In this document: piece after piece, positions 10,524 to 30,600 of the stretch
Position numbering within the stretch: the stretch's first letter is position 1
Layout: every line of letters starts with the position of its first letter
Origin: a virus
Direction: 5' to 3' (one strand)
IMG/VR virus record: IMGVR_UViG_3300005077_000003
Location: 64,001-128,000 of that record
Length of the DNA stretch: 64,000 nt
Notes under the pieces: model-generated
Seen by the model: only the letters and a program-made list of their open reading frames with translations
The model's database searches: none
What the model was told of the DNA's origin: nothing
Translations under genes and position numbers: made by a program

Positions 10524-11195
10524 ATGGCTAGTACATTAGATAGTTATACTAAGAGCTATAACTCATTCTCTGGTGCTGATATGGTTGTAACCTTCGGTAA
10601 ATATATTATCGGAGAGCTACAGGGTATATCATATACAATACAAAGAGAAAAGGCTCCACAGTATGTACTAGGTCAATCTGACCCAGTATCATTTTCAAGA
10701 GGGAAGCGCGGGATAGCAGGTTCTTGTGTATTCCTGGTATTTGACCGGTCTGCATTACTTGATGCGTTCCAGGATACGCCATTCTTAGCATGGGAGCATG
10801 AATTTGCTGCACTCGTATCCGATCCAATAGTAAGTGCGCCCGTCCTGATAACAGCAGGATTAAGCAGTGCTTCTTCTGGGTATGGTCAACCTCAAACCGC
10901 CAACTCTTTTGCGGTTGCTAATTCAATTCAAATTAGCAAAATACTTGCGCGCCCCGCTTACCATGACCAAGTATTACCATTTGAAATAGTGGTTACTGGT
11001 GCAAACGAGTATGGTGCTACAGCATCCATGAAAATACACGGTGTCGAAGTCATCAATGTCGGCTCCGGGTTCTCAATTGATGATATGCAAATTGATGAAG
11101 CTTGTACTTGGATAGCCAAGGGTATTACCAACTGGCGTCCAGGAATACAAATACATATTCCTAACTATACTCTACCTACTACTATCGCTGGCTAG
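10524..11195 (+). CDS. Tail tube protein
   Basis: Follows the sheath gene. SFSGADMVVTF...GELQGISYTIQREKAPQYVLG...SFSRGKRGIAGSCVF and IHGVEVINVGSGFSIDD are tube-fold motifs. SD AAGGAGG at 10509-10515. Confidence 0.88.
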   Translation: MASTLDSYTKSYNSFSGADMVVTFGKYIIGELQGISYTIQREKAPQYVLGQSDPVSFSRGKRGIAGSCVFLVFDRSALLDAFQDTPFLAWEHEFAALVSDPIVSAPVLITAGLSSASSGYGQPQTANSFAVANSIQISKILARPAYHDQVLPFEIVVTGANEYGATASMKIHGVEVINVGSGFSIDDMQIDEACTWIAKGITNWRPGIQIHIPNYTLPTTIAG

Positions 11196-11211
11196 ATGCT
11201 ATAACTATTTT

Positions 11212-11243
11212 GGGTAGACCCAGAAATGGGTCTACCCTTTAAT
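11212..11243 (+). terminator. Intrinsic terminator-like hairpin after the tube gene
   Basis: Perfect 11-bp stem GGGTAGACCCA / TGGGTCTACCC with a GAAA tetraloop, followed by TTTAATTAT (short U-tract). Confidence 0.7.
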
Positions 11244-11247
11244 TATA

Positions 11248-12141
11248 ATGCCTTTATTTGATCCACAAACAGTTTTAGGTAAAGAAAAAGTATCATTTTC
11301 TGGTACTGATGTTAGCGTTGTATTTAGTATTCATGGCAGTATGCCATCGTACATAGCAGATAAGCGATACTTTAGATCAGCACAATTACAAACTATATCT
11401 TTAACTTCAGCAGCATCATTATTCCCAGTTCGCAGATGCGGAGAAGCATCTGCCACAACGCTCACAAAGGGTGCGCGTACGGTTGCGGGTTCTATGGTAT
11501 TTACCATACTAGGACAAGATCCTTTACAAGAAATATTTTCTATTGATGCAATAAAATCTGCAGCCAGAACAGATAGTTTATGGCACATAGATCAAATGCC
11601 ACCAATAGACTGTTTGCTAATATTTGCTACTGAAACTGGCGGTAGAGGATTACAAGTAATCCAAAACATGCAAATATCTAACTGGGGAGAAGTAGTAAGT
11701 ATTGATGACATGTATATTGAATCTAGTTATACTTTTATTGCTGAACATATAACTCCATTTTTGTCTATGGATCTTATGTCAGCAAGCGGCACCAGTAGTA
11801 ATAGGGTTGCTAAAGTATTAGAAGATAGAATGTCAGACATAAGATCTAATGCATTAACCCCAGATGATGCAGCTATAACTGCGATAGGTATTTCTCAGAA
11901 AGAAATAATAGATAAGTATGGATGGCATGCGCCTACTATTATGGCACAACTTGCTAAGGATGAATTAAAATTAAGAGCAGGCAAAGCTCTTAATTTAATG
12001 GATATAGGAGTCTCAAGACTTATAGATAATATAGAAACAGGTACAACAAAAGCTGGAGAAGTATATGCAATATGGACAACAGCACCAGAAATACCTTCAA
12101 CAATATTTGATCTTACTAATTTAAAATATGTCACGCGCTAG
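11248..12141 (+). CDS. Tube-fold paralog (tube initiator / baseplate tube-like protein)
   Basis: SFSGTDVSVVF, LQTISL...FPVRRCG...TKGARTVAGSMVF and WGEVVSIDDMYIESSYTFIA align by eye with the tube protein. Confidence 0.7.
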   Translation: MPLFDPQTVLGKEKVSFSGTDVSVVFSIHGSMPSYIADKRYFRSAQLQTISLTSAASLFPVRRCGEASATTLTKGARTVAGSMVFTILGQDPLQEIFSIDAIKSAARTDSLWHIDQMPPIDCLLIFATETGGRGLQVIQNMQISNWGEVVSIDDMYIESSYTFIAEHITPFLSMDLMSASGTSSNRVAKVLEDRMSDIRSNALTPDDAAITAIGISQKEIIDKYGWHAPTIMAQLAKDELKLRAGKALNLMDIGVSRLIDNIETGTTKAGEVYAIWTTAPEIPSTIFDLTNLKYVTR

Positions 12142-13239: not shown

Positions 13240-13874
13240 TGGAAAACAATGTACTGGATAAGTACACAGAGCTAATACTTCAAGGTAACAAAGACATATT
13301 TATTACCGAACTCGGGGGCTTGTCATTTATTTGCAAGCCCCTTACTTATTATCAGTATAAGCTTTGTTTAGATATAGAAAAGAATGTGGGCGCACCAGAT
13401 TCTAATGAAGCCATTCTAAAATTATCAATTATATTTCCAGAAAGGAATGAGTTAGAAAATTGGATAGATAGCACAAACGCCTGTTTCCCAGATATATTAG
13501 CAGATAAAATCCTAGCTAAATCTAGTTTTAAAAGCCAAGAAGATATATATAGCTTATATCTTTCATCCAGGGATGATGTTGAAAAAGACTTTATTGGCTT
13601 AGCACAAATATATATTTGCACCGCATTTAAGGCCATATCGCCAGCAGATATAGATAAAATGCCAATGAAAGATATTATGTGCCTACTAGTAAAGGCAGAA
13701 GAAGCTTTAGGTAAAAAGATTAATATAGAAGAATTATTTAATATAGAATCAGAAGGTAAACAAAAAATACCTATTCCTCCAGGAATGGAGTCAACTGCTT
13801 TTGATCCTTTCTCTAAAGAGTATATGTTAGATCCAGATAATGCGAGCCCAATACCACCAGAGGCATTCAGATAA
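13239..13874 (+). CDS. Tail assembly chaperone, second paralog
   Basis: FICKPLTYYQY...EAILKLSII...LADKILAKSSF parallels the previous ORF; TAATG-coupled. Confidence 0.55.
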   Translation: MENNVLDKYTELILQGNKDIFITELGGLSFICKPLTYYQYKLCLDIEKNVGAPDSNEAILKLSIIFPERNELENWIDSTNACFPDILADKILAKSSFKSQEDIYSLYLSSRDDVEKDFIGLAQIYICTAFKAISPADIDKMPMKDIMCLLVKAEEALGKKINIEELFNIESEGKQKIPIPPGMESTAFDPFSKEYMLDPDNASPIPPEAFR

Positions 13875-15322
13875 TGGCCAGGCAAGGAGAAGAGCCTAGG
13901 TATACTGGTCCACGCGAGGGTGAACTAGAAGCCTATAATGCAGAAGTAGATCAGGCCAATGAGCGTGATGCTAGTTGGCTAGCCAAAATAGCTATAATAG
14001 GTTTTGGTACACACGTACTAGGAAGGGCAGTTGGGCGAAATATAATTGCTGATATTATCCACACTGGTGGATTAATGTCCAAGTGGGCTGGCGGCCTCTA
14101 TAAGAGAAAAGGCAAATCTTTATTAAGACCAGAAGTATACAATAGAGTTGCTAGGGCTATTGATGATAATAGTGGCGTTTCTGGTGAGGTAATAAAAAGA
14201 ACCTGGGAAGGTTCAAACCTAGAAGAAATAGAGGGCGTAAGAAGGCTAATAGAGATGTCCTCTATTATAGGGGATCCTAAAAATATTACTTCCCGCCCTA
14301 GACTAATAGAGTTTTTTAAAGAAGAGCTCGCCAGAGATGCGCGGGTTCTTCAAAGACCAACACCTTTACAAAAAGAAATGTCGCATAGCCTAGATAGGCT
14401 AACCTTTGGTGACATTCTAGAAAATGAATCATATTTCTTTAGACCAAAAGAAATAGCAAAGTCATACCAAATAGAATCTATTAATCTTGCAATAGATCAA
14501 GGGCTTATAACAAAAGAAACAGTAGTAGGACCAAAACTATTTAAGCGCCTCGATAAACAAGGCAAGTTTGCATCACTAATAGATTTAAGACTTACTGATC
14601 CAAGATATGCACTTGAAAGTGCAGCTAAAATAGTTGGCGACGTAGCTGGTATATTTAGGGGTTTCGCGTCTTTATTTGGTAATGCCAGAACATTAGCTGA
14701 ACTACCAAGCGAGCATCCAGGTGGACCGCTAAGGGTATTTATAAAAGGACAAGCCGATTCTGCCGTAGCACCGCGCAGACCAACAATAAAAGGTCCATGG
14801 AATGATGCAGATGTATTAGCTTTTGATATAGAGACAAACAAAGCCAAAGCAATTAATGATGTAACAAAATTGCATATGGTTTCTATCGCCGCCAAAGAGA
14901 AGGGCGGAGCATGGAAGAGCTATACATTCTGGGATGATACTGCAGTAACCCACCCTGATGTTGTAAGATCTGGCAGTATACAAGACGCCTTAGATATACT
15001 AGAGGCTCATAAGGGTACATTATTTGGCCATAAGATTTTAGATTTTGACTTACCCGTAATTAAAAACTTACGCGGTGGGCTTACTATAGAAAGCGGCGCA
15101 GAAATAAGGGATACACTAGAAATGTCCCACGTTGCTTTTGGTACCTTTAAATCTGGAAAGCTACGCGAGATAGACAGACTAGCAGCTATAGGAAAAGAAC
15201 AAGAGTTCTCTGGACAAGTTCTTCATAAAATACCAAGCGAAATGAGGGGGAGACATTCCCTAGAAGCTTGGGGGCAAAGGCTTGGTAAAACTGCAAAACT
15301 GGAATATAAGGGCGACTGGTAA
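13874..15322 (+). CDS. N-terminal part of a giant tape-measure-region protein; contains ExoI and ExoII of a PolA/T7-type 3'-5' exonuclease
   Basis: LAFDIETN (14816-14839), GHKILDFDLPVI, IRDTLEMS, RHSLEAWGQRLG...EYKGDW. Ends at TAA 15320-15322, in frame with the next ORF. Confidence 0.75.
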   Translation: MARQGEEPRYTGPREGELEAYNAEVDQANERDASWLAKIAIIGFGTHVLGRAVGRNIIADIIHTGGLMSKWAGGLYKRKGKSLLRPEVYNRVARAIDDNSGVSGEVIKRTWEGSNLEEIEGVRRLIEMSSIIGDPKNITSRPRLIEFFKEELARDARVLQRPTPLQKEMSHSLDRLTFGDILENESYFFRPKEIAKSYQIESINLAIDQGLITKETVVGPKLFKRLDKQGKFASLIDLRLTDPRYALESAAKIVGDVAGIFRGFASLFGNARTLAELPSEHPGGPLRVFIKGQADSAVAPRRPTIKGPWNDADVLAFDIETNKAKAINDVTKLHMVSIAAKEKGGAWKSYTFWDDTAVTHPDVVRSGSIQDALDILEAHKGTLFGHKILDFDLPVIKNLRGGLTIESGAEIRDTLEMSHVAFGTFKSGKLREIDRLAAIGKEQEFSGQVLHKIPSEMRGRHSLEAWGQRLGKTAKLEYKGDW

Positions 15323-15337
15323 GCCCTAACGCCAGAT

Positions 15338-18300
15338 ATGCTTAAGTATGGATCGCATGATCCAGTAGTAACTGGTGACCTATTTGACTTTCTCAAAACA
15401 CTAGCTAAACCAACACATAAAGAAGTAAGCGCCACTGCTTCTATTGCTAAAAAAGCAGAAGACATTAAAGGAAGTGTCGGTAGAGTATATGAGTTTGTTG
15501 GTGATGAGCCTCCAAAACTAGTAGAATCTGGTGTTCGTCTTGGAGAAACCGGAGATATATTGTTCAAGCCTTCTGTTCTTAGAAAGCTCCATAGAGAAGG
15601 CAAATTAGAATCTATTTATACAAAACCCGGCCCTAATGCTACTTGGCTCCAAAAGTTACAACACAAGGCTGGTATAGGACCAGAATTCCAAGAGCGACCT
15701 GGTGGCTTTGTTCAAACACTATTAAGAGCAGTTAGGTCTATAAAGGCAATACATACTGGTGAAGCAAAGTTTGCTGGTAAAAGATATAAATCTAGTCCAA
15801 GCTCATTATTAAACGTTGTAGCTGGCAGCACAATACCACTAGAGGAAAGACTGCCTGAATATATTTCTCGTGGTAAATATTATAAACAAGCCGGTGAGCC
15901 AATAAAACCCGGGTTCTTTGATAGGATCAAAGCATACTTAGGGATATCTGAAGACGTAGATATAGTAAAAGCATCAGCTTTTGAGCCAGGTCGTATGCAA
16001 ATAGAAGCAGCAGATCTGCTAATCCCTCCAAAAACAGGTGGATTAAAACCACTTACTAAATCAGCATATTCTGCTACAGAAAAAACAATTGGCCCAACTG
16101 GAACGTTATCAGCCAGAAGAACTTCAGAATTTTATACTTCTAGTGCCAATCCTATAGATAAGCTATATGATTTTGCAAACTATTTAACAATAAGATTAAA
16201 TACATTAGCTAGCAGCCAAATGCTTGGCATAGGATACCGCGCATCAGGTAGCCTTACTGCTAATGCATTAAGATTGGCGGCAATCCCAGCAATATATATA
16301 GCTGGTACTGAAGCAATAAAATATGCTGATTATGAAATAGGCGAGCTAACAGGAGTCCGCCCATCATTCTTGGTATCAGATTTATATACTAAAGCTAGAG
16401 TACTACAACAGCAAGCAAGAGAAACCACTGGAATACGTAAAGGGGCAGAGACATTTGAGCTTACTTTCCCAGGCATAAGTGCCGGCCTAGCAGGAACAGG
16501 GCTAGCAGCCTTAGGCGCATTTGCTACCCTAAAAGGCACTGGATCATTTAAAGCCGCAGCTGCTGCTGGCGCCGCCATTTATTCATTGATAGGCGGCCCA
16601 GATGTAGCTCAAAAGCCAAAAGAATTAGAAGAGGAATATGAAGGCATACGCAAAGTGCCAGTAAGGTCATCTTCCTATTGGTTACTGGGATACGCTCCTT
16701 TTATTGGCGGCCACATAACCCACCATGAGCCAAGTTGGTATGTAAAACACAAATCGCAAGCGTATAAAACAAATATATATGGATCTGAAAAAGAATATTG
16801 GTCCAGCGGCACATTCTTACCAACGCCACAAAATTGGTTTGGTTTAAAAAATATAATTGATCCATATAAATTAGAAAGGGAAAACTACTACAGAAGGCCA
16901 TACCCTACTACTGCTGGCTGGGGAGAAGAGTTCCCAATTATTGGCCCATTAGTAGCAGATACAATAGGTGAGATATTTAAGCCTCGTGTAAGAATGCATG
17001 AGGAAGACAACCAACGTGTTGTAATAAGCAACTTACAACAAAGAGGTGCGCCAAAAGATATTGCATCATATCTCGGTATACCAGAATTGCCAGTATCAAT
17101 TGTAGAATATGGCAAACCTGAAGTATTAAGAGAAAGGCTTAAAAAATATGCAAATGTCGCTTTAGAGCCTGCTGGTATATGGAAGTTTGCTTTACAATAC
17201 TTTGGTATTAGTTTTGACGAAGGATATGAGGAAGCTACTGCTTCTAATATGGGATCCATATCAAGAAGATTCTATGAAGCAAACCTGGGCGGGGCATTCG
17301 GAGAAAGTGAATTCCTTAGGCGCTTCCTACTATCTGATTATGGTAGGGCTTCAAAGTTCAACCAACAATTAAATCCAATACCAAACTATCTTCCTAGATG
17401 GCTACCTGGATCATTAAGCAACTTCGAAGAAGACAGAGCTGCATTCTATGATTTTTCTCTTGGAGATGCATATACCAAGATACAAGGCGGGGAATATAAT
17501 TTACCTGGTGTTGGATATGAAAGCTATACTCCGCTACACGGTAAAGAAGCAGAAAGAGAAGAAGAGAAAATTAAATTTACTGCTAGAGTAGTTAAAGTAG
17601 TTGACGCTGATACTGTTGATATATCAATTAATGGCGGCAGACAGCGTATACGTCTAGCAGAAACTATGGCTCCAGAGAAGAATACGACAGAAGGTCAAAT
17701 TGCTATAGCAGCAATGAAATCTTTGTTGTCTCCTGGTGACAATATAACAGTAGAAACTACAAGAGACGAATTTGATTCTGGTGAATCTCAAGGCCCTTAC
17801 GGACGGACTATCGCGCGTATTTGGAAGAATGGCCTGTCTATTAATAGGGCAATGGTAGACTCTGGACACGCTACACAAATAGATTCAAGCTATGATGCAG
17901 TAGACAGATTCTTAATACTATCCAATATAGCACCATTCTCAAGAGCTTACAAAGATGCAGAACGCCAAGTTCGCCATATGCATCTTACAGAAGATTGGCA
18001 GGCCAGGGTTAATGCTGCCTATGAAGAAAGAGAGGCAAAAGTAGATAGGTTAGGGCTAAAAAAGTACCTACAAGAAGAAGCCGAAGCAGCTAAATTAAGT
18101 CCTCAACTAAGAGTCATAAGAAGTACATATCAATCTGTACATGAGAATCTACTTTCAGAAATACCAATAGTTGGATCAAAGTTTTTCCCAAAAAGAAATC
18201 CAGTTGATTTATATAGGAAGTTTGAAGTAGAAGGATCTGGCTTTGCAAACTGGGAAGAGCCATATGAAACCATATTACGCCCAGCTATATATGATATAAT

Positions 18301-19243
18301 TGGAAACAACCCAGTAATAGCTACAGCAAAAGCAGGTGGTTTAACTTGGCTAGCATCATCCTCTATGGGTAAATGGCTAAATCCAATAAGCGCCTTAGCA
18401 TATCCAGCAAATAGAGCTGCCACAATAGCAAGTGCCGCCGCAGTAGGTGGCGCGTTGTCAACTACAAGAATGGTTGCTACCGGCAAACTGGAAGGAGGAT
18501 TTACCCCGCCTCATATTGAAGAAGAGAGAGAAGTAGAAGAATATTTTGATCAACTAAAATATTTAAAGCATAGAAACTTAGAAGAAGCCGCTAATGATGA
18601 ACAGGCATACCATGTAGCAAACTATGCTAAAAAGCAATCGCGCAAAACATTGTTATATGGTCTACATGCACTAGAAACTAAAGGAAATATATTTGCTTAT
18701 AAAGGAGCACTTAAATCTAAAGAGAGGGCTTACTTTGAGGCCTTTGTAGAGGCTCCAGAAGAGGACAGGAGTGACATCCTATCAATGACCCCTGACCATA
18801 TGAAACGCGCGCTGGAAGCAATATGGGACCGCCAGCGTAAAGATAGACCGCCCGTAGAAGAACAGGCAGAACAATACTGGGATAAACATGCTATGCCAAA
18901 GCCGACGTGGATAGGTTGGCACCCAGATATTGATGATGATGAGGTAAGAATAAAAGCTATTGAGGGTGGCATAAATGGTATTTCTGATAATTTACAAAGA
19001 TTTGGTTATTTCCCCTCACAAAGAAGAGAAGTAAAAGCCAGATTTGGCTACCTTACTTCGCCAGTAGATGATATACATCCAGCAAGTAAAACATTTGAAT
19101 TACCATGGAAAGTTAAGAAGAGAGGAGGAAATATACTTAGCGAGTTCAATTTTGGTGCTGGCGCTGCAATTAATTTATCTAATATTAATATATCAGATGA
19201 TCGCAGTGAAGAGATAGCCTATTTTGCTAATTATATTAGATAA
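15338..19243 (+). CDS. C-terminal part of the giant tape-measure-like protein; starts with ExoIII and contains an inserted thermonuclease (SNase) domain
   Basis: In frame with 13874..15322 across one TAA. Begins (ALTPD)MLKYGSHDPVVT. Has Ala/Gly-rich hydrophobic stretches typical of tape-measure proteins and an SNase-like segment at about 17570-17880. Confidence 0.7.
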   Translation: MLKYGSHDPVVTGDLFDFLKTLAKPTHKEVSATASIAKKAEDIKGSVGRVYEFVGDEPPKLVESGVRLGETGDILFKPSVLRKLHREGKLESIYTKPGPNATWLQKLQHKAGIGPEFQERPGGFVQTLLRAVRSIKAIHTGEAKFAGKRYKSSPSSLLNVVAGSTIPLEERLPEYISRGKYYKQAGEPIKPGFFDRIKAYLGISEDVDIVKASAFEPGRMQIEAADLLIPPKTGGLKPLTKSAYSATEKTIGPTGTLSARRTSEFYTSSANPIDKLYDFANYLTIRLNTLASSQMLGIGYRASGSLTANALRLAAIPAIYIAGTEAIKYADYEIGELTGVRPSFLVSDLYTKARVLQQQARETTGIRKGAETFELTFPGISAGLAGTGLAALGAFATLKGTGSFKAAAAAGAAIYSLIGGPDVAQKPKELEEEYEGIRKVPVRSSSYWLLGYAPFIGGHITHHEPSWYVKHKSQAYKTNIYGSEKEYWSSGTFLPTPQNWFGLKNIIDPYKLERENYYRRPYPTTAGWGEEFPIIGPLVADTIGEIFKPRVRMHEEDNQRVVISNLQQRGAPKDIASYLGIPELPVSIVEYGKPEVLRERLKKYANVALEPAGIWKFALQYFGISFDEGYEEATASNMGSISRRFYEANLGGAFGESEFLRRFLLSDYGRASKFNQQLNPIPNYLPRWLPGSLSNFEEDRAAFYDFSLGDAYTKIQGGEYNLPGVGYESYTPLHGKEAEREEEKIKFTARVVKVVDADTVDISINGGRQRIRLAETMAPEKNTTEGQIAIAAMKSLLSPGDNITVETTRDEFDSGESQGPYGRTIARIWKNGLSINRAMVDSGHATQIDSSYDAVDRFLILSNIAPFSRAYKDAERQVRHMHLTEDWQARVNAAYEEREAKVDRLGLKKYLQEEAEAAKLSPQLRVIRSTYQSVHENLLSEIPIVGSKFFPKRNPVDLYRKFEVEGSGFANWEEPYETILRPAIYDIIGNNPVIATAKAGGLTWLASSSMGKWLNPISALAYPANRAATIASAAAVGGALSTTRMVATGKLEGGFTPPHIEEEREVEEYFDQLKYLKHRNLEEAANDEQAYHVANYAKKQSRKTLLYGLHALETKGNIFAYKGALKSKERAYFEAFVEAPEEDRSDILSMTPDHMKRALEAIWDRQRKDRPPVEEQAEQYWDKHAMPKPTWIGWHPDIDDDEVRIKAIEGGINGISDNLQRFGYFPSQRREVKARFGYLTSPVDDIHPASKTFELPWKVKKRGGNILSEFNFGAGAAINLSNINISDDRSEEIAYFANYIR

Positions 19244-22200
19244 TGAGTATAATAAATGAAATTATAGCATCCCTGATAGGTGATGAAGGGAAAGCTGCAA
19301 TAGGCTATGCTTCAGTAAGCACGAACAGGGTTAGACCTGCTCTAGACAAAGTAGGCATAGAGGCATCTCTTGGCAGTACCAGAGTAAAGTCTATTAGGGC
19401 AAAACAGTACTTGACTACTGATTTTGGTGAGTCTAGAACAGCGTCTACTTTAGTAAAACAGATTGGCATTAAAATGCCAGAGACGCTTACTTCTGTTATT
19501 GGGAAAACAACAGAAGAAAATATACCAAAAGCTCTGTTTGTATACGACGTAGAATTCTTTAAGAGAGCTGCTCTACAAACTGGCGCTAGGCCAAAAAGTG
19601 GTATGGCGCATCTTATAGATGTAAAGCAATTAGTTTTACAAACACTTCCAGAGCTTGCTCCCCAAAACACAAGGATTGAGAACGTATATAGGGCACTGGG
19701 GTTAAGGGGCATAAGCATCCCCGAAGGTAGGGAATTTTTTACAAATAAAGAACGCCTTCAAGCAGTAGAAGAAATAGTACAAGAGGTTTTTTCAAGATCT
19801 CCTGTAGAAGCAAAAAGATTTTTAGAAAGATCTGTCGGACGCCGCTTTGGGATAAATCCACTTGATAAGTATGCCTCATTAATTGATGAGCACCCTTTAC
19901 AAAAGCTTATTGGCCCGGAAACGCTTAACGTAATCCCAGTTAAGAATAAGCTAAAGTCAACTGTACATGTAAGCAACCTAAAATCTCTTAATGAGGGATT
20001 AGTACCGATATTAGAATCTAGGTTTGGGAAACCATTTGCGGAAACATTCAAAACCTTTTCGCATAGATTATTTGAAAGCGTTGACCGCCCAGGAGACGTA
20101 TCCTTCTTACTAACAGGCGGCAATAGACTATTTGTTGGTGTTACTGGTGTAGCCAGTACATACGAAGAGCTTCCTACCCAAATAGGCGGCCTTATAGGCT
20201 ATAAAGGCAAACTGGCTTCTGCGCGCAATATTCTTATAGAGTCAAAAGAAGAAGGCGTTAAAGGAGTAAAAACACTAACAGAAGCTTTCTTTGATGAATT
20301 CATTAAGGGCGTAGAAGAGTATGGAGAAGGTGGTAAGAACGTTACCGCCGCCTTAGAAAAAGGTAGAAAACAAGCTCTTGGTACAGAGCTTTTACCAGGC
20401 TTAAGATTCAAAGATATCAAGGGAGCAGTATCCACATATGGCGATATAAGTTTCCATCAAGCTGCATATATGCAGCACTCTCTTGTAGTTGGCAAAGAGT
20501 CTATGCCACTGCTAGATGAGGAGATTAGGGAAGCTTCACTTAAGGCACAAACATTCCAGGTTACTAAGGAAAGTACTACAGAAAGACTATTAAAAGCACA
20601 AGAAGCAGATCTCGCTAAGCTTGAAGCCAAAGGTATAGAACTCCAAAAAATAACTGGAAGTGATGTTACCATAGGCAAAGAAGGGTATGAAATGATAAGC
20701 AATAAAACAGGCTTATCATTAGCCCCATACTCTTCAATAAGATCATATTTCCCTCCTGGTGCACAAACAGAAAGAGATCTATCAAAGGGAGCCTATCAAC
20801 TAGGTGGTATCAAGGAGACGTGGGAGCCACTAAGACATAGAGTTTTAGAACTTACCAGAAGAAGGCTAGGTCTCACAAGTGCACATCCAGTAGGTACTAC
20901 AATAGGAGTAGTGTCCGAAGAGCAGACTATGCACCAAATGCTTAAGTCTGCTACTGGGAAAGCTGTGATCGAAAAGCCGCTACTTATGTGGCAAGGCTTA
21001 ACCACAGTAGTAGCTCCAGGAGAAAGCCTAAAAGTAAGGAGCATGCTTGGTGATCAAGGTGCTATACTTACTCCTATAGGAAGATTATCTACTCAGAAAA
21101 GAAGAGCACTAGTAGGTACTGAAGCCGCGCTCAATGCGAGCGATTTAATAGATACTATTCGCACCCTTGCTGGGGTAAGAAAAGGAGAAGAATTACCTAA
21201 ACAGTGGAGCAATATATTAGAAAAAGCTCTACAGCAACAAGAGGTCTCTATTAGAGATATTGGCGAAGGTATAAAAATAAAAGGGAAAAGCTCTCTTGTT
21301 CCAAGGGGTGCAGAAGTACTTACTGGCATCTCATATGACGACTGGAATAAAGTATATAAATTTAATTGGAAGACCAAAGCAGGTAGCACATTAACAGAAG
21401 CCTTATTACTAGACAATCAAAGAATAACAGCTAGCGTAGCTGGTGAGTCTTTTCTAGAAGAGCTATTCGGAACTAAAGCCCTAAGAAGTGATATAATCAC
21501 TTCTTCTGAAACCTTTGCAAAAGCAGGTAAAGCCAATATACTTTATACACATATGCTTGGTCTGCTTGGCACCGAAAAGCTACAAAAAGCTGGTGGTGTA
21601 GCAAGGTTCTTAAGGTTATATGAAAAGCATGGCGGTAAGGGATTAGAAAGGGTAGGCAGAAAACAGCAGATCATAGCGACTTCTGAATTTTCATTTAAAA
21701 ACTTCCTTAGCCAAGGTGCTATAGAAGGGCCTGCTGAAAAAGCTCTATCTGAAATGGGCGCATCAGTAGCGCAAATATATGGACTTGCTAAAAGCTCTAC
21801 AGAGTATGGGGAGAGTATATATGAACTTTTCCCGCAAGCTATTAAGCCTGGTCCTAAAGGACCAGAAGTAAAAGGCACTATTTTAGATGAAATAGGAGCA
21901 AAAACTCTTCCTACTTTAGAGGAGCTTAGAGAGGTATCTATGAAAAGCAATATGTTTGCTTTCATAACCAATATGGCAAATAGAACCTCTGAAGTAACTG
22001 ACTTCTTAAATTCTGAAAAGTCATTTAGAATGAGACTCTTTACTTTGCATCAAATGGGTCAATCTCTACCAACTATGTTTGGCCTAGAAAATCCAATGCA
22101 ACATCCTATATATAGGATGGAAATAGAACATCTACAAGAAAGTGTGCCGGGATTAATCTTGAATCCTAACGCCAAAGCAGCTATTGGGAAACCAGGAGGA

Positions 22201-24663
22201 GAAGCTTTCGTAAAACAATTACCAAGAGACATTAAAAATGTGGCATATGCACTCAAATTACCTGCTCTTGAAAAGCTGAAAGTACGTGGCGGCAAAAAAT
22301 ATTTTAAAGGTGTAGAGGTATTAACAAGACAAGAGGCCGCAGAAAGATTCATAAATGCTCCTGGCGGTATAAATGTACAAATGTTAGAAGGAGAAATGAG
22401 TGCCAAAGAGCTTTTTGAAAAAGAGCTCTTAAGAAAGGAAAGACCCGGGTTCTTCCTTCATACTGGAGATACGCCATGGTTTGCGCCAGAAAACCTCGAA
22501 GCAGAAGGCAAAGTTATGAAGGCCTTGCCAGTTAGGGGTACATATATACCGTCTGGTGAAGAACTAAGAAGAATGATAGGACAAGGGGAATTTCCAAGAG
22601 GATCTCTGCTGCATTCTATGGTATCATTGCTACAGCAACCTAATGCAGTATATGGAGCCAAAGAACCTAGCGCAGCAACTAGTGTTACAGTAAGAGGTGC
22701 ATTTGAAAATGTATGGAGGTGGTGGGCTAAAGCTGGAGCAAAAGGCGGCTATTTCCATGAAACTAAGCTTACTAGCAAAAAAATGCCTGGCTCTGCCAGG
22801 GTCAGGCTAACACAGAAAATAGCAAGTAATCGTTCAGAGTTTAATCTTATAAACTCTATGGAGGACATTTATTCCGTTAAAATACAGAAAGATACTCTCC
22901 ATAAAATGGCAAAAGAAATTGCAATAGCTGAGGGTGCAAAAACTCCAGAAGAATTACTTGCAATAGAGGAAGACCTTATTGAAAAAGCATCAAAAGGAAA
23001 ACTATATGGCGCAGTTACGCCAAGACCTCAACATGCTCCATCACATCAAAGGCTGGTAAAATTACAACTTATAAAAGAAGAGGTTACAAAGAAATTAATA
23101 TATGCTGATCAGGCTACTGCAGGAGTTAGTCCATACTTGGCACACGAACTAAGTAGAGACTTTGACAAGGACGCAATAGAAGTTGCAATAATAAGAGCTA
23201 GGCATCTCAAAGGAACTGTCGACCCAGAAGAACTTATAAAGAAGCAGTATGAGATGTCTGCATCACAAAGGAAGCAGTTTGATAGACTAAAAATAGAAGC
23301 AGATAAAGCTCTTTCCACTATAGAAGAAACATTGGAAGGGGCAACAAAAATAGAACAAAAACAGCTGCTAAATAAATATGCGCTAAAGTACTTTGCATTT
23401 GGTAGGACCCCGGCCCTATCACAAGTAGGCTCTTGGACAACCCTTGCATTTGCTCAAAAGATAGCTGATACGGCTACTAGTGAAAAACAAATTGCTGAAG
23501 AGCTAAATAGATTGTTTACAATTTCTGCTGGCGGTGAATATACAGAAGGAATCATACAAAGATATAGAGATATTTTAGGAGAAGGGTCCGAAGCTGGATT
23601 TGCTGGTAGAGTAGAGCGCGCCATAGAAATGTATAGAACTCCATTCCAAGGCGCTCTTACAAAAGCAGGAGAGATTAAAGACTTGCTTGATGATTTCCTA
23701 AATATTCCCGGCATTATTAAAGAAAGAGCAGAATCTTATGTAGTTGGTAAGGAAAAACCATTAATAGAAGAAACCATAAGTATGGTTGAAGAATATCTAA
23801 CTAAAGCCCTTGGAGCTACAGATGAGGAAGTTCTTGGAAATATAGCCACAGGATATGGAGAATACTACGTAAGAGAGGCAGCAAAATCAGCAACTAGTGG
23901 AGTCAAGAAAGCCATCACCAGATTAGCGGCAGAAGATCTTGGCACCGTTATAGGCGTTTCTGCTATTGCAATGCAGAGACATCACGGCGGGAGAGTAATA
24001 GGTAACCCAATGAGAGACGCTTTCCAAAAAGTAAAAGGATCAATGGCGTCTCTGTGGTCGTTTGTTACTGGTGAACCAGTTCAAAATATTAGAGAGTCCA
24101 TGGTAGAAATTGCTATGGAACATAGCGATAGATCTGCTGAAGAACTTGGCGAAAAAGCTGCCAAGGTCATGGAAAAGACCATAGACAAAGCAACCACTAA
24201 AGCCAGCAATATTCTGAAAGATTCAGAAGTACTAAATGATATCTCTGCGAAGATGAAAGGTAAGTGGGGATTAGTTGCTGGTATAGCTGCCGGGCTATTT
24301 GTTTTGCGAGAGTTAAGCGGAATAGTTTCTGATGTTGGCGGGTTTGCCGGCGGTAGTGCTCCTATCCCAAGACAGCCACTGCTGTCATTCCCAGAAGTGC
24401 ATAATTTATTCGATAGCCAACAACCTACTGCCAACGTAATGCCGGTTGAAGGATATAACTCTTCACTAAACTATCAAGGTGGTGGCTATCAAGATGTTGA
24501 AGATATCACAGATAATCTAGGTGAAATCACAAATAGAGGTGCCAACTTCTCTAATATAAATATCAGAGATAGCAGAAAATACTCTAGTAATTTTGCTATG
24601 TCACAAGCATACAAGAAACAGGGTGTTAGTGATTTTACACACCAATATCAATATAATCAGTAA
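19243..24663 (+). CDS. Giant virion-associated protein with two-barrel (double-psi beta-barrel) RNA polymerase-like motifs; candidate single-chain virion RNAP
   Basis: Ordered motifs: ERDLSKGAYQ, GLTTVVA...GDQGAIL, LLDNQRITAS...DIITSS...NILYTHMLG (beta-like), then GAKGGYFHETKLTSKKMPGSARVRL, TPRPQH, VSPYLAHELSRDFDKDAIEV (beta'-like; triad at 23158-23172), then FQGALTKAG. Confidence 0.6.
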   Translation: MSIINEIIASLIGDEGKAAIGYASVSTNRVRPALDKVGIEASLGSTRVKSIRAKQYLTTDFGESRTASTLVKQIGIKMPETLTSVIGKTTEENIPKALFVYDVEFFKRAALQTGARPKSGMAHLIDVKQLVLQTLPELAPQNTRIENVYRALGLRGISIPEGREFFTNKERLQAVEEIVQEVFSRSPVEAKRFLERSVGRRFGINPLDKYASLIDEHPLQKLIGPETLNVIPVKNKLKSTVHVSNLKSLNEGLVPILESRFGKPFAETFKTFSHRLFESVDRPGDVSFLLTGGNRLFVGVTGVASTYEELPTQIGGLIGYKGKLASARNILIESKEEGVKGVKTLTEAFFDEFIKGVEEYGEGGKNVTAALEKGRKQALGTELLPGLRFKDIKGAVSTYGDISFHQAAYMQHSLVVGKESMPLLDEEIREASLKAQTFQVTKESTTERLLKAQEADLAKLEAKGIELQKITGSDVTIGKEGYEMISNKTGLSLAPYSSIRSYFPPGAQTERDLSKGAYQLGGIKETWEPLRHRVLELTRRRLGLTSAHPVGTTIGVVSEEQTMHQMLKSATGKAVIEKPLLMWQGLTTVVAPGESLKVRSMLGDQGAILTPIGRLSTQKRRALVGTEAALNASDLIDTIRTLAGVRKGEELPKQWSNILEKALQQQEVSIRDIGEGIKIKGKSSLVPRGAEVLTGISYDDWNKVYKFNWKTKAGSTLTEALLLDNQRITASVAGESFLEELFGTKALRSDIITSSETFAKAGKANILYTHMLGLLGTEKLQKAGGVARFLRLYEKHGGKGLERVGRKQQIIATSEFSFKNFLSQGAIEGPAEKALSEMGASVAQIYGLAKSSTEYGESIYELFPQAIKPGPKGPEVKGTILDEIGAKTLPTLEELREVSMKSNMFAFITNMANRTSEVTDFLNSEKSFRMRLFTLHQMGQSLPTMFGLENPMQHPIYRMEIEHLQESVPGLILNPNAKAAIGKPGGEAFVKQLPRDIKNVAYALKLPALEKLKVRGGKKYFKGVEVLTRQEAAERFINAPGGINVQMLEGEMSAKELFEKELLRKERPGFFLHTGDTPWFAPENLEAEGKVMKALPVRGTYIPSGEELRRMIGQGEFPRGSLLHSMVSLLQQPNAVYGAKEPSAATSVTVRGAFENVWRWWAKAGAKGGYFHETKLTSKKMPGSARVRLTQKIASNRSEFNLINSMEDIYSVKIQKDTLHKMAKEIAIAEGAKTPEELLAIEEDLIEKASKGKLYGAVTPRPQHAPSHQRLVKLQLIKEEVTKKLIYADQATAGVSPYLAHELSRDFDKDAIEVAIIRARHLKGTVDPEELIKKQYEMSASQRKQFDRLKIEADKALSTIEETLEGATKIEQKQLLNKYALKYFAFGRTPALSQVGSWTTLAFAQKIADTATSEKQIAEELNRLFTISAGGEYTEGIIQRYRDILGEGSEAGFAGRVERAIEMYRTPFQGALTKAGEIKDLLDDFLNIPGIIKERAESYVVGKEKPLIEETISMVEEYLTKALGATDEEVLGNIATGYGEYYVREAAKSATSGVKKAITRLAAEDLGTVIGVSAIAMQRHHGGRVIGNPMRDAFQKVKGSMASLWSFVTGEPVQNIRESMVEIAMEHSDRSAEELGEKAAKVMEKTIDKATTKASNILKDSEVLNDISAKMKGKWGLVAGIAAGLFVLRELSGIVSDVGGFAGGSAPIPRQPLLSFPEVHNLFDSQQPTANVMPVEGYNSSLNYQGGGYQDVEDITDNLGEITNRGANFSNINIRDSRKYSSNFAMSQAYKKQGVSDFTHQYQYNQ

Positions 24664-27600
24664 TGACCTTAAATATATTTGATGAGACTGGTATTGAAAG
24701 ATCTGAGCAGACTCTTACCAGTGAGCAGCTAGCTGCAGCGCATGCTTCTACTAGGAACCTTGGTACTCCTATTAGAAGTACGTATAATACTCCATCTACT
24801 AATAGAAACAATCCAGTACTACCACCTATCAAACATACTGTTTACGGTAAAAATCCTGGTTCATTAGCTGCCAAGGATCAAACCTTTTTACAGATAGGAC
24901 CACATATATATGGTGGTGAAGTACAGGATATACAAATATTAGAGAATAAGGCAGTCGCACAATTTCTTGGTGTTAGAACATCAGCAGACTTTTTAGTTGA
25001 TAGCGGAGATGGTGATGCAAATATAGTTATTAGTTTACTATTTTCTGGAGTAGAACATATCTACTCTGGTTTAGTACCACTTATAGCTTTATTTAAAATA
25101 TCTCCGCTAACAAGTATAAAAAATGAGATGATAACATCATCTCTATCAAATGAATTTGTTGATAATATTGCTGATGGTGCGACAAAGCTTGCTCTAGATA
25201 AAGCTGACGAAATAATAAACAAAGCTTCTTTATATGAAGCATCAAGTATATTTATAGAGAATATTAGGCCATATTATGATGGCATACTCCCACAGGTTGT
25301 TAATTTAGAGTTTTTTAACAGTTTTAGAAATAATCAAGATTATAATAAACTACCCATGTGGGGTTACTATAACTGGGATACTTATGATGATTTTATTAAC
25401 TATAAAGCATTACCAAGATACAGCAACTCTGAAAAACTTAAATTAGCTTCTTCGGAAGAATATACTGAAAAACTTAAGAAGAAGCTAGTAAACAGAAAGC
25501 CCTCTAATTTCGTTCCGGTAGCTTTTACTGATATAACAATACAAACACATACTGAACTATCTGATACACTAATAGCCCGCTTAGTGTTTAAGAGGGTAGA
25601 TGTTTCTGCTTATAGCTCAACTAGTTTATTATATAGAAGTGCTAACAATACTCCTACAGATGATCCATTGAACGCCTATTGGCTACGTAGGATGCTAGAT
25701 CTTTATATAAACAAGTATTTAGATAAGAGCTATGTATTTGCTAATATGGGAGATGGGATAAGTGAAGAAGTATCACTAAGGTTTGCAGGCAATGATATAG
25801 TATTAAATATATTTAAGAAAGAATATAATCTAAATAATCTTGTGGTACAAGATACAGGATCAAATAGAGATTCTGTTGTAATGCAAATGCAAATTGCATA
25901 TGGTAATAAATTTTCTTTTGTAAGAAGGGCGGGTACAAGCTTCCCAACAGCACAGTTTATGGGCTATGGTAGTGGCACCTGTGCGATGGCTATAAAAACA
26001 AAGTCTGCTGAAAAGTTTAAGTCCATACATGCATACAAATCTGCCGCCGACTTCTTTATAAGAACACAAGATAGATTTGATAGATTTACTGGTTGGGAAA
26101 TAAGATCATCAATAGTTAAGATGTTTAATACATCTAGCTTACCCAATTCTTTACCAAATAAGCCAGCAGAATTTAAATCAGCATGGTATCCAATACAAGT
26201 ACAGTCATCTACTGATCCAGATTATCCTAATGTAAAAAATATATCTATAACATTTAAAGAAACAAACCCGGATTTCTATTCTGATTTTGGATTTTCAGTA
26301 TATAGAAAAGGATATCGCCTTGATAACCTAAGAGATTTCTTTAATGAAATATGGGATAGAGCAGTAAGGTATAGAAAAGGTGAGGGAGATTCTTTAGACA
26401 TTACTGCACATACAGCAGTATTTGGTACAGGAGATCCATATGAACTAGAATACAGTATGGTTAATGAAGATACTATAGCTGCTGTATTCTATAACGCATA
26501 TAGATTTAATACAAAAAGTCAATACTTCTCTCCAGAAGCTAATGATATTAGTGAAAAACTTTTTTCAAGACTAATGTACAGTAAAAAGTTTTCTGGATTT
26601 GAAGGATCATCTGTTACACTACCAGAGCATTTAAATAATGAACTTGGAGAAATCTTATCTCCTTTTGAATTAACTAGTGATTTTGAACTTAATAATGAAA
26701 CATTTGCAAATCTAGCTACTCTAGTAGCTGACTATTATTTTGATGTAGATGACACAGATGTATATAATGGTCTTGTAAATGCTATAAATAAAGTAGCATC
26801 TGGAGAATCTGGCAGAAGGAGTTTATATTCATATATATACCAACACATGGATATATTAATGAATAATGAATTTAGAGACTCTCTGTTTGCAGTAATCGCC
26901 AGAAGACCAAAGCCAGAAGTTAATGAGCATCAGTATAGCCTACACGGACTAAGTTCTGCGTTTTCGACACTGTCGCTTGTTTTGGAAGCAAAAGGTAAAG
27001 AACTATTAAGTGACGAATCCTACAGTGCACTATCTCAAACAAAAAGAGATGAAACAAAAATAATATTGGATTCTAATAATACGCAATCTAGAACAGAAAC
27101 CGCAACAGCATATCCAGATTATTTTAGAGCCACTTATGGTGAGCTGTTTAATGTTGTAGATGGCAACCCATTATATTGGAAAAACTTTGCCCCTACATTT
27201 CAGGATATGGGCATAATAAATGCCGATCCAAAGTTCTTAGAAAAGTATGATAGTTTTACAGAGTCGTCTGTTAAAGATGCGCAAAATCAGACTATAGCTA
27301 CTATAGATAGTCCAGTACCACCAAGTATAATATTCTATCACGAAAGATTATTAGACAAAGAGTTTATGCATCAGGTAGATGAAGATGTGTCTAACTATCA
27401 TGACAAACTTTCTAAGATGCGCATGTATATATCTTTTGATATACAAAAAGTATTAAAAGATGAATATGGCAGATATCTTGGGGAGAATGAAAACTTTGAC
27501 CAGTCTAAAATAGACGGATTAGCTGACGTAATAGAAAAAGGATTACAAAAACAAAACTCTTCTAAGAGCAGACAAGACTATATCAAATCAGGCGGTTTAC

Positions 27601-30600
27601 TTGTAAATGATTTACTTGATCAATACAGTAAGCAAAGGGGGGTTGATAGAACCGAAGTAATAAAAAAAGATTCATCATATAGAGCTGAATTTGAAAAGCA
27701 TATTAGAGATATACTTGATGGTAAAATAGAAAATTACAGTGATTATGATTTTAACAAAATATTGACCCCATTCTTAATTGGTACTAATATAAATGCTCCA
27801 GTAGCAAAGTGGAAATCATATTCAAGCGTTATTGGCGAAGGTATATCCAGAGGAATACTTAAAGGTGCTGGAGCAAACGTAGACTTGTCATCGTTTTTAG
27901 ATAATACATTAGTAACAACTGAAAATGGTGGTGTTACTCTTTCATGTGCAAATAGAGATGAAGAAAGAGTATCTATGTTAAAAATTATGCAGCGAGTCGC
28001 TGATAATTCATACTCTATGATAAGAGCATTCCCAACTATGAGATTATATCTTATAGAATTTCTTGGGCCTAGAATAATAGTACAAGATAACTTTTGGGGA
28101 TATAATGCTATTATATCTATGGACATAACTCTTGATAAAAATGATGCAGATCTAGCTGTAATAAGAATAGCCGACCCCTTCCACATATTACAAGGTTCCG
28201 CATTTGGTTCTGAATGGGCTGGTGGAGATACTGTGGTTGATCATATAGCTGTTCCAGTAACAAATGATGATCCATCACAAGGAAATATACTAGAAAGAAT
28301 AAAACTAAAAGTTGGTAGAGCAATTCAGATACGCGGCGGCTATTGCGTGGACGATAGGACCGAAATTCTCACACAAAGAGGATGGCTTACAAAGGACGAG
28401 TTAAAGGTTGGCGATATGTCTCTAACTCTCAACCACAATACCGGCTTATCTGAATGGCAGCCAGTAAAAGAGATCCACGTTTTTCAGCATGATGGCCCAA
28501 TGGTCTCTATAGATGGCAATAGGCATTCGTCTCTAACAACTTTAGGGCACAAATGGCCCGTCATCTATAAATCCAGAATGATAAATAGAAAGACCATCAA
28601 AAAGGTTAGAGAGTGGACTACTTCTGAGAAATTAAATGGCGCCCACATTCTTATCGGCGGGGCGAAGCATAATAGCGATATAAAAGAAAAAGTATATAGC
28701 GATGCCTTTGTTGAAATAGTAGCATGGTTTTGGACAGAGGGAAATATAAGAAACAATATAGGAATAAAAAGGGCTCCTATTATTAGGATATCTCAATCTC
28801 CTACTGCTAATCCAGATAATGTAAAAAGAATAAGTGCAGCTCTGGAAAATGAGTTTGGTAAACCAAGTGATAATATTAGTTCTGGTAATAGAATATCTCT
28901 GGGTGTCCCAAAATGGAAATCAAAAAAAAGACGTACTAGGAATGAGATTGTATTTAGTTTGAATAAAGCTGCTTCTGCTTTAATACTAAAGGTTGCACCA
29001 GGCAAGGTAGTGTCTAAAGAGTTCATACTTCAGCTTACCCAAGATCAGCTTGAGCTATTTGTCCAGATCTCTAACAAGGCTGATGGTCACAATAGTAAAT
29101 TAAATGATAAAATACTATTGTCACAAAAAAATCCTAAGTTTTTAGATGCGCTGGAGCTCGCAGCTATTCTCGCAGGATATAGAACTCATAGATACTTTGC
29201 AAAAGCAAGCTGTCAAGATCGTAGAGGTAACTGGTATCATCCTGATAGACTAAACATAAGCCCTAAAGTCAACATTTGGGTTGATACTTCTAGACCTGAA
29301 GTAGTAAACTACAAAGGCATTGTATGGTGCCCAACAACAAAAAATCATTCGTGGATGGCACGCAGAAATGGACACTGCTATTTTACCGGGAACAGTAGTG
29401 ATCCTGAAAACTTAGATATTATATTTACAGGTAGAGTAGCTGAAGTAGAATATGGAGATATCATAACTATAGCGGCACAAGGCTGGAAGTCAGAACTATT
29501 AGGTAGAACAGTAGAATTCCAGCTTAATAATAGGAATGAAAGTTCTGTTAAAGATTTAGTTGTAACGACTATTCAAAAAGCTTCTCCAGGAGGAATTGGA
29601 GAAGAATACTCTGGCAAAGTCACTGACGTTCTTACTTCAATAGGAGGTAATCTGCCAGCATCTCAAGCTATATTTAACTCACTACTAAACAGTAGCGGGA
29701 CTGCCGTAGGAGTCCCAGGTTCTGGCGGGACAGCTGGTATAGGTACTATTATAGGCAGCTGGAGATTCCTTAAAAATCTAGGGATGGGCCTAGATACTAG
29801 GCTAAGAAACATATGGATACCAGATAAAGACAGGACGCGACTTGACTATTTTGCAGATATATCTGATACAGGTTGGGAAGGCAAACACTGGGTATTCCCG
29901 CCTACGGATGCGTGGGAGATATTACAAAAAGCCACTAATTATACATGGAGATATATTTGTCAAGTAGTACCATATGAAGGAGAAGCCACATTATTTTTTG
30001 GGAGACCAGATCAACTCTATTACCATAGAGACGTAGATACTCGCCAATATCAAGCACAGGATAAAAGAAGAACTGCTTATAAAACAGAGTTGACAAAACT
30101 AATATCTGAAGTGATTGAACAATGGTATTCTACGTTAAACCCTGTTGTATCAAATAAATATTCTGATGGATATGAAAATCCAGGCGTAACGCTTCCCGCC
30201 CTTAATAGAAATTCGTATTATCCTTTATTTAAAGCTAGCTTCTATAAAAATTCAATATGGGATGTATTTAAATCATATAAAGACTTAGCAACCATATATA
30301 AAGTAGAAAATAGCTGGATTGCTCAAGCATCAAAGGACATATTAAATGTAGATGTTTATAATGATTTTGAAACTATTATAGAGTATTTTGGTGATCCAAT
30401 AATCATATCTAAGTTACTTCTTGTAGAGTTCTATGGGCTTAATTATGATTATGTAGAACAATATTTAGAACCTTATGTTTTATCATCTGTTATAGCTAGA
30501 AAGCTAACTGAAAATGACCTAATATCACTAAAGAATACTTTAGTTGAAGAAACTAATAATAACAAAGTTAGTGATGTTTTAGAAAAAATAAGTGCTTTAC

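Follow-up and report, generated by a model that had tools for sequence, protein, structure and literature searches.

A predicted single-chain beta-beta' polymerase family encoded within the tail operon of contractile-tailed phages

What kind of protein is encoded by a long gene that lies between two giant tail-interior genes of an uncultured phage, and what would it do there? The question is raised by P0001, an open reading frame (ORF) within the 64,000-nucleotide stretch of DNA analysed here, referred to below as the window, which corresponds to positions 64001–128000 of a 177,611-bp IMG/VR virus record (IMGVR_UViG_3300005077_000003; estimated completeness 92%). A preliminary description, made from the letters of the window, had proposed that P0001 is a single-chain two-barrel RNA polymerase (RNAP) in which a beta-like part is followed by a beta'-like part. 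This fusion was recovered by structure prediction, with the N-terminal half matching subunits of the beta/Rpb2 type and the C-terminal half matching subunits of the beta'/Rpb1 type, and P0001 is almost certainly a homologue of the two-barrel polymerases. On its predicted fold, it is a member of a new and very divergent family of single-chain beta-beta' enzymes. The ORF runs through 1,806 codons with no internal stop (Table 1) and is joined to its neighbours by TAATG stop/start overlaps at both ends (19240–19244 and 24660–24664), in agreement with the coupling that had been noted previously, the partners being an upstream ORF of 1,301 residues and a downstream ORF of 2,613 residues.

Neither the whole P0001 protein nor its ends produced a match in Pfam (at E ≤ 1) or in PHROGs, and nothing meaningful was found among PDB sequences, either by phmmer or with a profile of the family. 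Among 50,697 phage records, tblastn with P0001 or its catalytic part returned no relative, a pattern scan of IMG/VR likewise gave none, and feature and shape searches for P0001 in the ESM Atlas gave nothing informative. A word-based search revealed a single relative, P0004, with 23% identity to P0001 and an exactly conserved RDFDKD, and an exhaustive search with an HMMER profile then extended the family, among 1.84 billion representatives, to 33 proteins, 22 of which are full length (1,529–2,097 residues). The full-length relatives are metagenomic and share ~20–30% identity. The family profile was also compared by hhalign with P23-45 gp96 (residues 1–1200), E. coli beta', and E. coli beta, with no significant match to any of the three; the top segment against E. 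coli beta' nevertheless fell at residues 445–466, which hold the NADFDGD loop, at a non-significant E value of 0.15. By the measure of these searches, P0001 defines a family that is unrecognised by any sequence library and comprises ~30 clusters among the 1.84 billion representatives.

The fold was investigated with two AlphaFold2 models, both computed with no templates from alignments of the family: a large model of residues 480–1580 and a domain model of residues 495–935. The domain model (predicted local distance difference test (pLDDT), 82.8; predicted template modelling score (pTM), 0.81) covers the beta-like module, and its top 50 hits in Foldseek are all second-largest subunits of RNAPs. 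In an exhaustive comparison by VIA-align, only nine of 48,161 PDB chains reached a Z score of at least 5, and all nine are beta-type subunits, with Z scores of 9.8–12.5. They comprise Pol I A135, vaccinia Rpo132, plastid beta, Pol IV NRPD2, the African swine fever virus subunit, the beta subunits of the non-virion RNAPs (nvRNAPs) of phages AR9 (7s00_C, Z 11.3) and phiKZ (7ogp_C, Z 9.8), a Pol III subunit, and Xanthomonas beta. The next best fold, at Z 4.9, is a PAS/LOV match to an insert in the module, and gp66 of the crAss-like phage (6vr4_B) follows at Z 4.7. In the large model, residues 24–442 superpose by VIA-align on residues 678–1025 of vaccinia Rpo132 (Z 8.9, 255 aligned, root mean squared deviation (r.m.s. 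deviation) 5.4), and residues 101–436 superpose on a double-psi beta-barrel (DPBB) of the expansin type with a Z score of 6.9; in the domain model, DPBB matches cover residues 86–421. Of the two predictions, it is the domain model that is decisive for the first barrel. The insert, found at residues ~622–714 (window 21106–21384), resembles PAS/LOV domains at Z 4.0–4.9 over ~74 aligned residues with an r.m.s. deviation of ~3, a resemblance that may simply be that of a common small fold.

The large model (pLDDT 69.7, pTM 0.57) also contains the beta'-like module. Its best Foldseek match is the AR9 nvRNAP chain 7s00_d (E 6.3e-5), followed by the phiKZ nvRNAP, and VIA-align places model residues 508–1101 on residues 17–1265 of E. 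coli beta' with a Z score of ~9, ~400 residues aligned, and an r.m.s. deviation of 6–7. In an exhaustive comparison of the model with 48,161 representative chains, largest subunits of RNAPs took all of the ten best rows (Z scores of 8.0–8.9). The second barrel (model 704–838) superposes on the designed DPBB 7dww_A over 86/86 residues (Z 7.3, r.m.s. deviation 2.7) and is also matched by the barrels of VAT-N and Cdc48-N. Within it, strand 813–816 and helix 818–824 lead into the RDFDKD loop (826–831), which is followed by strand 832–837; the same succession of strand, helix, loop, and strand surrounds the catalytic loop of beta'. Both barrels are aligned at once by single-chain enzymes, namely QDE-1 (Z 6.1), P23-45 gp96 (8h2m_A; Z 6.1, 189 residues, r.m.s. 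deviation 4.5), RDR2 (Z 6.0), and P74 gp62 (8f5m_A; Z 5.4). The preliminary description had let its proposal hinge on double-psi beta-barrels being present in a predicted structure and on the aspartates being conserved in a barrel loop. The barrels were found at model residues 704–838 and 101–436, and the aspartates, which are present in 23/23 sequences, are located in the helix-to-strand loop of the second barrel.

Conservation was counted in a MAFFT alignment of 23 full-length family members, in which 65 positions are at least 85% conserved; a second alignment, of 27 rows, covered residues 480–1580. Only eight columns of the latter are invariant, six of which (P, H, R, D, D, D) belong to the beta'-type motif and two (Q, K) to motif 6. 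The six motifs that had been listed before, in beta-then-beta' order, were all located at the coordinates first assigned to them, and each holds invariant or near-invariant residues in the 23 members; the motifs are therefore far beyond chance. In motif 5, R1305, D1306, D1308, and D1310 are each found in 23/23 and the lysine of the loop in 20/23. DFDKD had been placed at 23158–23172, residues 1306–1310, with which the present coordinates agree, and the check proposed for it, conservation of DxDxD in homologues, showed all three aspartates to be invariant. In the first part of this motif, P1262 and H1264 are invariant, with P1260 and H1268 conserved in 22 and 21 of the 23 members, respectively. 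Motif 4 contributes G1169 (21/23) and the invariant R1188, located in strand 705–710 of the large model. On the beta-like side, G603 of motif 2 is invariant and D604 is present in 21 members, the remaining two having Glu; judged by sequence, G603-D604 is a candidate counterpart of beta NFED and could be equivalent to beta E813/D814. R727 of motif 3, in strand 232–238 of the domain model and thus in the first barrel, is a candidate counterpart of beta K1073, and H770 is part of the family motif F-x-H-R-T-G-L-L. Motif 6, with Q1469...K1474 as part of an invariant Q-x-x-I-x-K-G at residues 1469–1475, is possibly the start of a bridge helix; the helices that the large model contains in this region are all short. 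Other conserved positions, in the N-terminal region, are G203, D215, G262, G299, and G400.

Because the triad, the Arg preceding it, and the basic residues of the other barrel have stayed invariant while the rest of the protein has drifted to ~20–30% identity, the pattern is that of a working active site, and P0001 is, on this conservation, probably catalytically active. The active site would lie between the two double-psi beta-barrels, where the loop carrying D1306, D1308, and D1310 would hold the Mg ions. As the best structural relatives are DNA-dependent multisubunit RNAPs, DNA-dependent RNA synthesis is taken as the default reading.

The position of the gene bears on where such an enzyme would act. 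P0001 is found inside a single unbroken structural block of 54 ORFs on the plus strand, which extends over 87 kb (genome coordinates 51–138.6 kb). PHROGs matches in the window include the major head protein (3135–4547), the tail sheath (8981–10510), tube-type proteins (10524–12141), and a gp6-like baseplate wedge (34119–35273), and genes for the terminase and portal are located directly upstream of the window. With sheath, tube-type, baseplate wedge, and head proteins identified, the virus is a contractile-tailed phage. Judged by the sheath, the nearest phage in culture is Bacillus phage 0305phi8-36 (31.6% identity across 45% of the protein), and the source phage belongs to an uncultured, deeply divergent lineage. 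Look-ups of public sequencing runs and of RNA holders listed none. The label of jumbo phage used earlier is not strictly applicable to a record of 177.6 kb.

The slot occupied by P0001 is kept in six loci from different sources, in the order sheath, tube, four small genes, tape-measure-like gene, polymerase gene, giant gene, and Baseplate_J, with tape-measure-like proteins of 1,449–1,555 residues in the relatives and giant genes of 2,257–2,728 residues. A motif N-I-x-D-x-R is located ~20–35 residues from the C terminus in both the tape-measure-like and the polymerase families (here and in loci L002, L005, and L006). It takes the form NINISDDR in the upstream partner P0002 (window 19189–19212) and NINIRDSR in P0001, with YNIYDERR and VNVRDSR in L002, and may serve both families as a signal for docking or processing. 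No match to PF00623 or PF00562 was found in the whole 177.6-kb record, so no other Rpb1 or Rpb2 was recognised; a search of the record for a T7-type RNAP (PF00940) likewise gave no match but was uninformative, as the control genomes gave none either. The only other matches to D[hydrophobic]DxD in the record are the PHP motif of DnaE, one in P0002, and two in a structural ORF of 1,386 residues, and to the extent that sequence can reveal one, the record contains no other recognisable RNAP. From the coupling within the late operon, the slot kept in six loci, the absence of another recognisable RNAP, and the shared C-terminal motif, we infer an association with the virion, and this gene context makes it reasonably likely that P0001 is virion-borne and ejected.

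The reading that is favoured, with a similar degree of reserve, is that P0001 is an active single-chain RNAP that is packaged, ejected, and, once in the next host, transcribes the earliest phage genes. P0001 would be made late, translationally coupled to the tail-interior genes, and would be built into the virion, probably in the tail or baseplate with the tape-measure-like protein. On the model of P23-45 gp96, sheath contraction would expel it together with the DNA, whose first genes it would transcribe during entry. It could instead be an active RNAP that is never packaged, but is expressed alongside the late genes and serves the transcription of late or structural genes in the same cell. 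No RNAP other than P0001 can be recognised in the record, its presence in the virion is deduced from context, and non-virion single-chain RNAPs do exist, such as gp64 of P23-45. However, an enzyme needed for the late operon cannot be encoded solely within that operon, and TAATG overlaps couple P0001 to a giant tail-interior gene on either side, in a slot kept in six divergent loci. Moreover, it has a C-terminal motif in common with the tape-measure-like protein and a hydrophobic segment near its C terminus, comparable segments being found in some relatives (P0007 and P0022), although not in all. An unpackaged enzyme is consequently considered unlikely.

Several observations weigh against a packaged, active, and ejected RNAP. 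The family is known from genes alone and has no cultured relative, the closest by sheath being 0305phi8-36. A folded protein of ~200 kDa cannot pass the tail tube, so delivery would need unfolding or another route. No conserved phage-specific promoter was found, as 9-mer enrichment in 56 intergenic regions returned only AT-rich words without shared flanks. The large model is only moderate, with a catalytic loop of pLDDT below 50, and the Z scores of 8–9 for the beta' half fall in the range that VIA-align itself terms "middling." The other points concern the active site. The canonical lysine pair of beta does not consist of lysines in the P0001 family: as the preliminary description had cautioned, an invariant Arg (R727) takes the position matched to K1073, and the K1065 position lacks a conserved Lys. 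The basic residues near or in the first barrel are R727 and R914, both invariant and in strands, and K515, invariant upstream; R727, R914, and perhaps K515 would stand in for the two lysines. At the first position of the family loop consensus N-R-D-x-D-K-D, two residues ahead of the first Asp, only ~14/23 members have Asn, and P0001 has Ser. Arg425 of beta' contacts the ribose of the incoming nucleoside triphosphate, and by alignment this arginine is without obvious counterpart in the P0001 family. The stretch at its place has the family consensus P-x-P-T-H-G-x-G-H (T-P-R-P-Q-H in P0001), and an invariant Arg (R1305) immediately precedes the first Asp of the triad instead. The family thereby fails the signature "[RK]xP x20-100 DxDxD," that is, [RK]xP 20–100 residues before DxDxD, which was the filter for collecting known two-barrel RNAPs (PMC10770324, Supplementary Data 4).

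These departures would also suit a two-barrel polymerase of another chemistry or role, having relaxed sugar selectivity (for primer or DNA synthesis), performing RNA-templated synthesis, or acting as a genome-pulling transcription motor. The [RK]xP arginine is replaced by P-x-P-T-H family-wide, the Arg before the first Asp is invariant, the Asn before the triad is variable, and two-barrel RNA-dependent polymerases (QDE-1 and RDR2) do align, at Z ~6. In contrast, the best matches by a wide margin are subunits of DNA-dependent multisubunit RNAPs, at Z 9.8–12.5 versus ~6 for QDE-1 and RDR2, and a different chemistry or role is held to be slightly less likely still than an unpackaged enzyme. The loss of the canonical lysines and of the [RK]xP arginine, a location among tail-interior genes, and fast divergence (23% identity to the L002 protein versus 34–41% for the neighbour proteins) would be in keeping with a structural protein of the tail core or baseplate that derives from an RNAP but has lost catalysis. 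Yet the residues that are invariant in 23 divergent members are the Asp triad and the basic residues of both barrels, which is the pattern of an active site and not of a scaffold, and a dead protein appears improbable. Finally, that the motifs are fortuitous in a tape-measure or internal tail protein of the ordinary kind, a view for which the lack of any significant sequence match to an RNAP (Pfam, PHROGs, PDB, hhalign) might be cited, is effectively refuted by two template-free models matching beta-type and beta'-type RNAP subunits, with both barrels recovered and the motif residues invariant.

To our knowledge, experimental demonstrations of virion-delivered two-barrel RNAPs are limited to crAss-like podoviruses, phiKZ-like jumbo phages, where the enzymes are multisubunit, and one lineage of Thermus siphoviruses. 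In the last of these, represented by P23-45 (with P74-26, G20c, and TSP4), gp96 is a virion two-barrel RNAP fused to the tape measure (PMC10770324; PDB codes 8H2M/8H2N), a precedent that had been named in the preliminary description and proved to be real. P0001 is like gp96 in being a single-chain two-barrel polymerase at the tape-measure locus of a tailed phage, with a DFDxD-type loop, and in gp96, as in P0001, only the catalytic loop resembles other RNAPs in sequence. Unlike gp96, which forms the N terminus of a 5,002-residue fusion, P0001 is a separate gene downstream of the tape-measure-like gene. The RNAP is separate from the tape measure in all six loci, and no fused form is found among the 33 family members, the longest relative having 2,097 residues. 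The two further differ in that P0001 combines a contractile tail with the loop R-D-F-D-K-D, whereas the loop of gp96 is DFDGD; the structural matches of P0001 to multisubunit beta/beta' are clearly better than those to gp96, to which hhalign detects no similarity; and P23-45 possesses gp64 as a second, non-virion single-chain RNAP, whereas no second RNAP is recognised in the genome of P0001.

Like gp66 of phi14:2, a crAss-like phage (PDB code 6VR4; bioRxiv 10.1101/2020.03.07.982082), P0001 is large, its gene lies among those for giant virion proteins, and it presumably enters the cell along with the DNA; in the DFDxD loop of both the fourth position is not Gly. However, phi14:2 is a podovirus, and its gp66, of ~2,180 residues, matches the beta-like module of P0001 weakly; this half of P0001 is clearly nearer to multisubunit beta than to gp66 or QDE-1. 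Multisubunit beta/beta', including the split nvRNAPs of AR9 and phiKZ (PDB codes 7S00 and 7OGP), are the best fold matches for both halves, and Lys is also found at the fourth loop position in nvRNAP beta' of the AR9/phiKZ type (DDDKD, DNDKD, and DYDKD). P0001 differs from them in its core of ~1,100 residues in one chain, compared with ~2,750 for beta plus beta', in having neither the lysine pair nor the [RK]xP arginine, and in its tail-operon context. YonO of SPbeta, set beside P0001 by description, also contains both barrels in one phage-encoded chain, but enzymes of this type are non-virion and related to the clade of RNA-dependent RNA polymerases and QDE-1. A YonO-like single-chain RNAP is encoded by Bacillus phage 0305phi8-36 (ABS83659.1; PMC7824862). 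The three giant tail-slot proteins of this phage contain no DxDxD and have no similarity to the P0001 family.

Full-text literature searches turned up a review on RNAPs of jumbo phages as well as the precedents from P23-45 and a crAss-like phage, but no account of contractile-tailed phages with a single-chain RNAP as a gene of its own in the tail slot. In a BFVD structure search, the 1,101-residue model was matched over nearly its full length by A0A7R7G2L5_2 and A0A8S5SD80_1 (1,072–1,172 alignment columns; E 1.2e-10 and 4.4e-9, respectively). One of the two is annotated as "minor tail protein" of an uncultured siphovirus, and polymerases hidden in tail genes may therefore be wider spread.

A bolder proposal, and a doubtful one, is that the tail-interior block is an ejected enzymatic payload and not a mere ruler, with a tape-measure-like protein decorated by exonuclease and SNase domains and a one-chain polymerase that shares its docking motif. 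As the ribose-sensing arginine of known two-barrel RNAPs is replaced, this polymerase could possess an unusual substrate selectivity or could serve mainly as a transcription-driven motor that pulls the genome in. Since P0001 is structurally nearer to cellular beta/beta' than to the clade of YonO, QDE-1, crAss, and gp96, it could then represent either a minimal form that arose independently from the multisubunit lineage or a branch that left this lineage early.

The genes on either side of P0001 show further insertions. In this phage the tape-measure-like gene is split into an ORF of 482 residues (window 13874–15322) and P0002, where relatives have a single ORF. Residues 9–292 of the 482-residue product match the N terminus of a 1,468-residue protein of L006 (29% identity, E 2e-32), and this tape-measure-matching part is followed by a DnaQ-like 3'-5' exonuclease domain (phrog_17 and phrog_403). 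P0002 contains an SNase domain at residues ~736–849 (window 17543–17884; PF00565, E 6.8e-6; phrog_452), and its L002 orthologue is without it, the alignment skipping exactly that stretch. By position, P0003 is a candidate hub-like protein. It includes an intein-like insert at residues ~1205–1584 (window 28275–29414), its orthologues in relatives being ~350 residues shorter, and its sole matches in phage databases are between this insert and inserts that Gordonia and Mycobacterium phages carry in their terminase and portal genes. The large terminase, upstream of the window (L004:11433–14420; genome 57433–60420), has 995 residues with ATPase and nuclease matches spread across residues 106–895 and may also be interrupted by an insert. 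The sequence NVDIRDARR in this protein was considered as a further instance of the C-terminal motif but was judged coincidental, as the protein is a terminase. In L011 (8913–9866), small ferredoxin-like, NifU-like, and Fe-S-biosynthesis-like genes are located between the tape-measure-like and polymerase genes.

Table 1. Features of P0001 and its two partners. Positions are those of the window; fractions are counts among the 23 aligned family members.
Feature	Residues	Window position	Strand	Remarks
P0001, whole gene; predicted single-chain two-barrel (beta-like then beta'-like) polymerase	1,806 aa	19243..24663	+	Intact ORF; family and fold matches
N-terminal region	1-494	19243..20724	+	No Pfam match; few conserved Gly, Asp, Pro
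beta/Rpb2-like module	495-935	20725..22047	+	First barrel (DPBB-B) ~580-915; PAS-like insert ~622-714
Motif 1, TERDLSKGAYQ	R511; K515-G516	20773 (R511); 20785..20790 (K515-G516)	+	In T-K-G-x-Y-Q; K515 23/23, G516 22/23
Motif 2, GLTTVVA...MLGDQGAILT	585-610	21049..21054 (G603-D604)	+	Family motif F-G-D-A-G-A
Motif 3	716-773	21421..21423 (R727); 21550..21552 (H770)	+	R727 23/23; H770 22/23
R914, end of last strand of first barrel	914	21982..21984	+	23/23; strand 410-420 of domain model
beta'/Rpb1-like module	~987-1580	22201..23982	+	Foldseek top 50 all beta'/Rpb1-type
Motif 4, first strands of DPBB-A	1164-1189	22747..22806 (G1169...R1188)	+	Compare beta' GKQGRF...SGRSVI
Second barrel, DPBB-A	1183-1317	22789..23193	+	Model 704-838
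Motif 5, first part, P-x-P-x-H...H	P1260, P1262, H1264, H1268	23020..23046	+	Place of beta' NRAPTLH
Motif 5, second part, R-D-F-D-K-D	R1305, D1306, D1308, D1310	23155..23172	+	Putative Mg-binding catalytic loop
Motif 6, FQGALTKAG	1468-1476	23647..23664 (Q1469...K1474)	+	Family Q-x-P-I-x-K-G-G; both 23/23
Hydrophobic, membrane-helix-like segment	1677-1695	24271..24327	+	Kyte-Doolittle, 19-residue window, 1.84
C-terminal motif N-I-N-I-R-D-S-R	D1776, R1778	24553..24576	+	D1776 and R1778 invariant; common to P0002 C terminus
P0002, upstream partner, tape-measure-like by position	1,301 aa	15338..19243	+	SNase insertion; C-terminal N-I-x-D-x-R
P0003, downstream partner, giant hub-position protein	2,613 aa	24663..32504	+	Intein-like insert; start TAATG-coupled to P0001

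The P0001 family puts a one-chain beta-beta' core of ~1,100 residues into the tail-interior slot of contractile-tailed phages. If the enzyme is active and ejected, infection in which the phage brings its own polymerase would reach a third tail type, and P0001 would provide one of the smallest RNAP cores of the cellular type for structural and mechanistic work, as well as a natural test of the roles of the ribose-contacting arginine and the lysine pair, which are absent from it. It would also follow that labels such as "tape measure" and "minor tail protein" on giant tail genes can mask enzymes.

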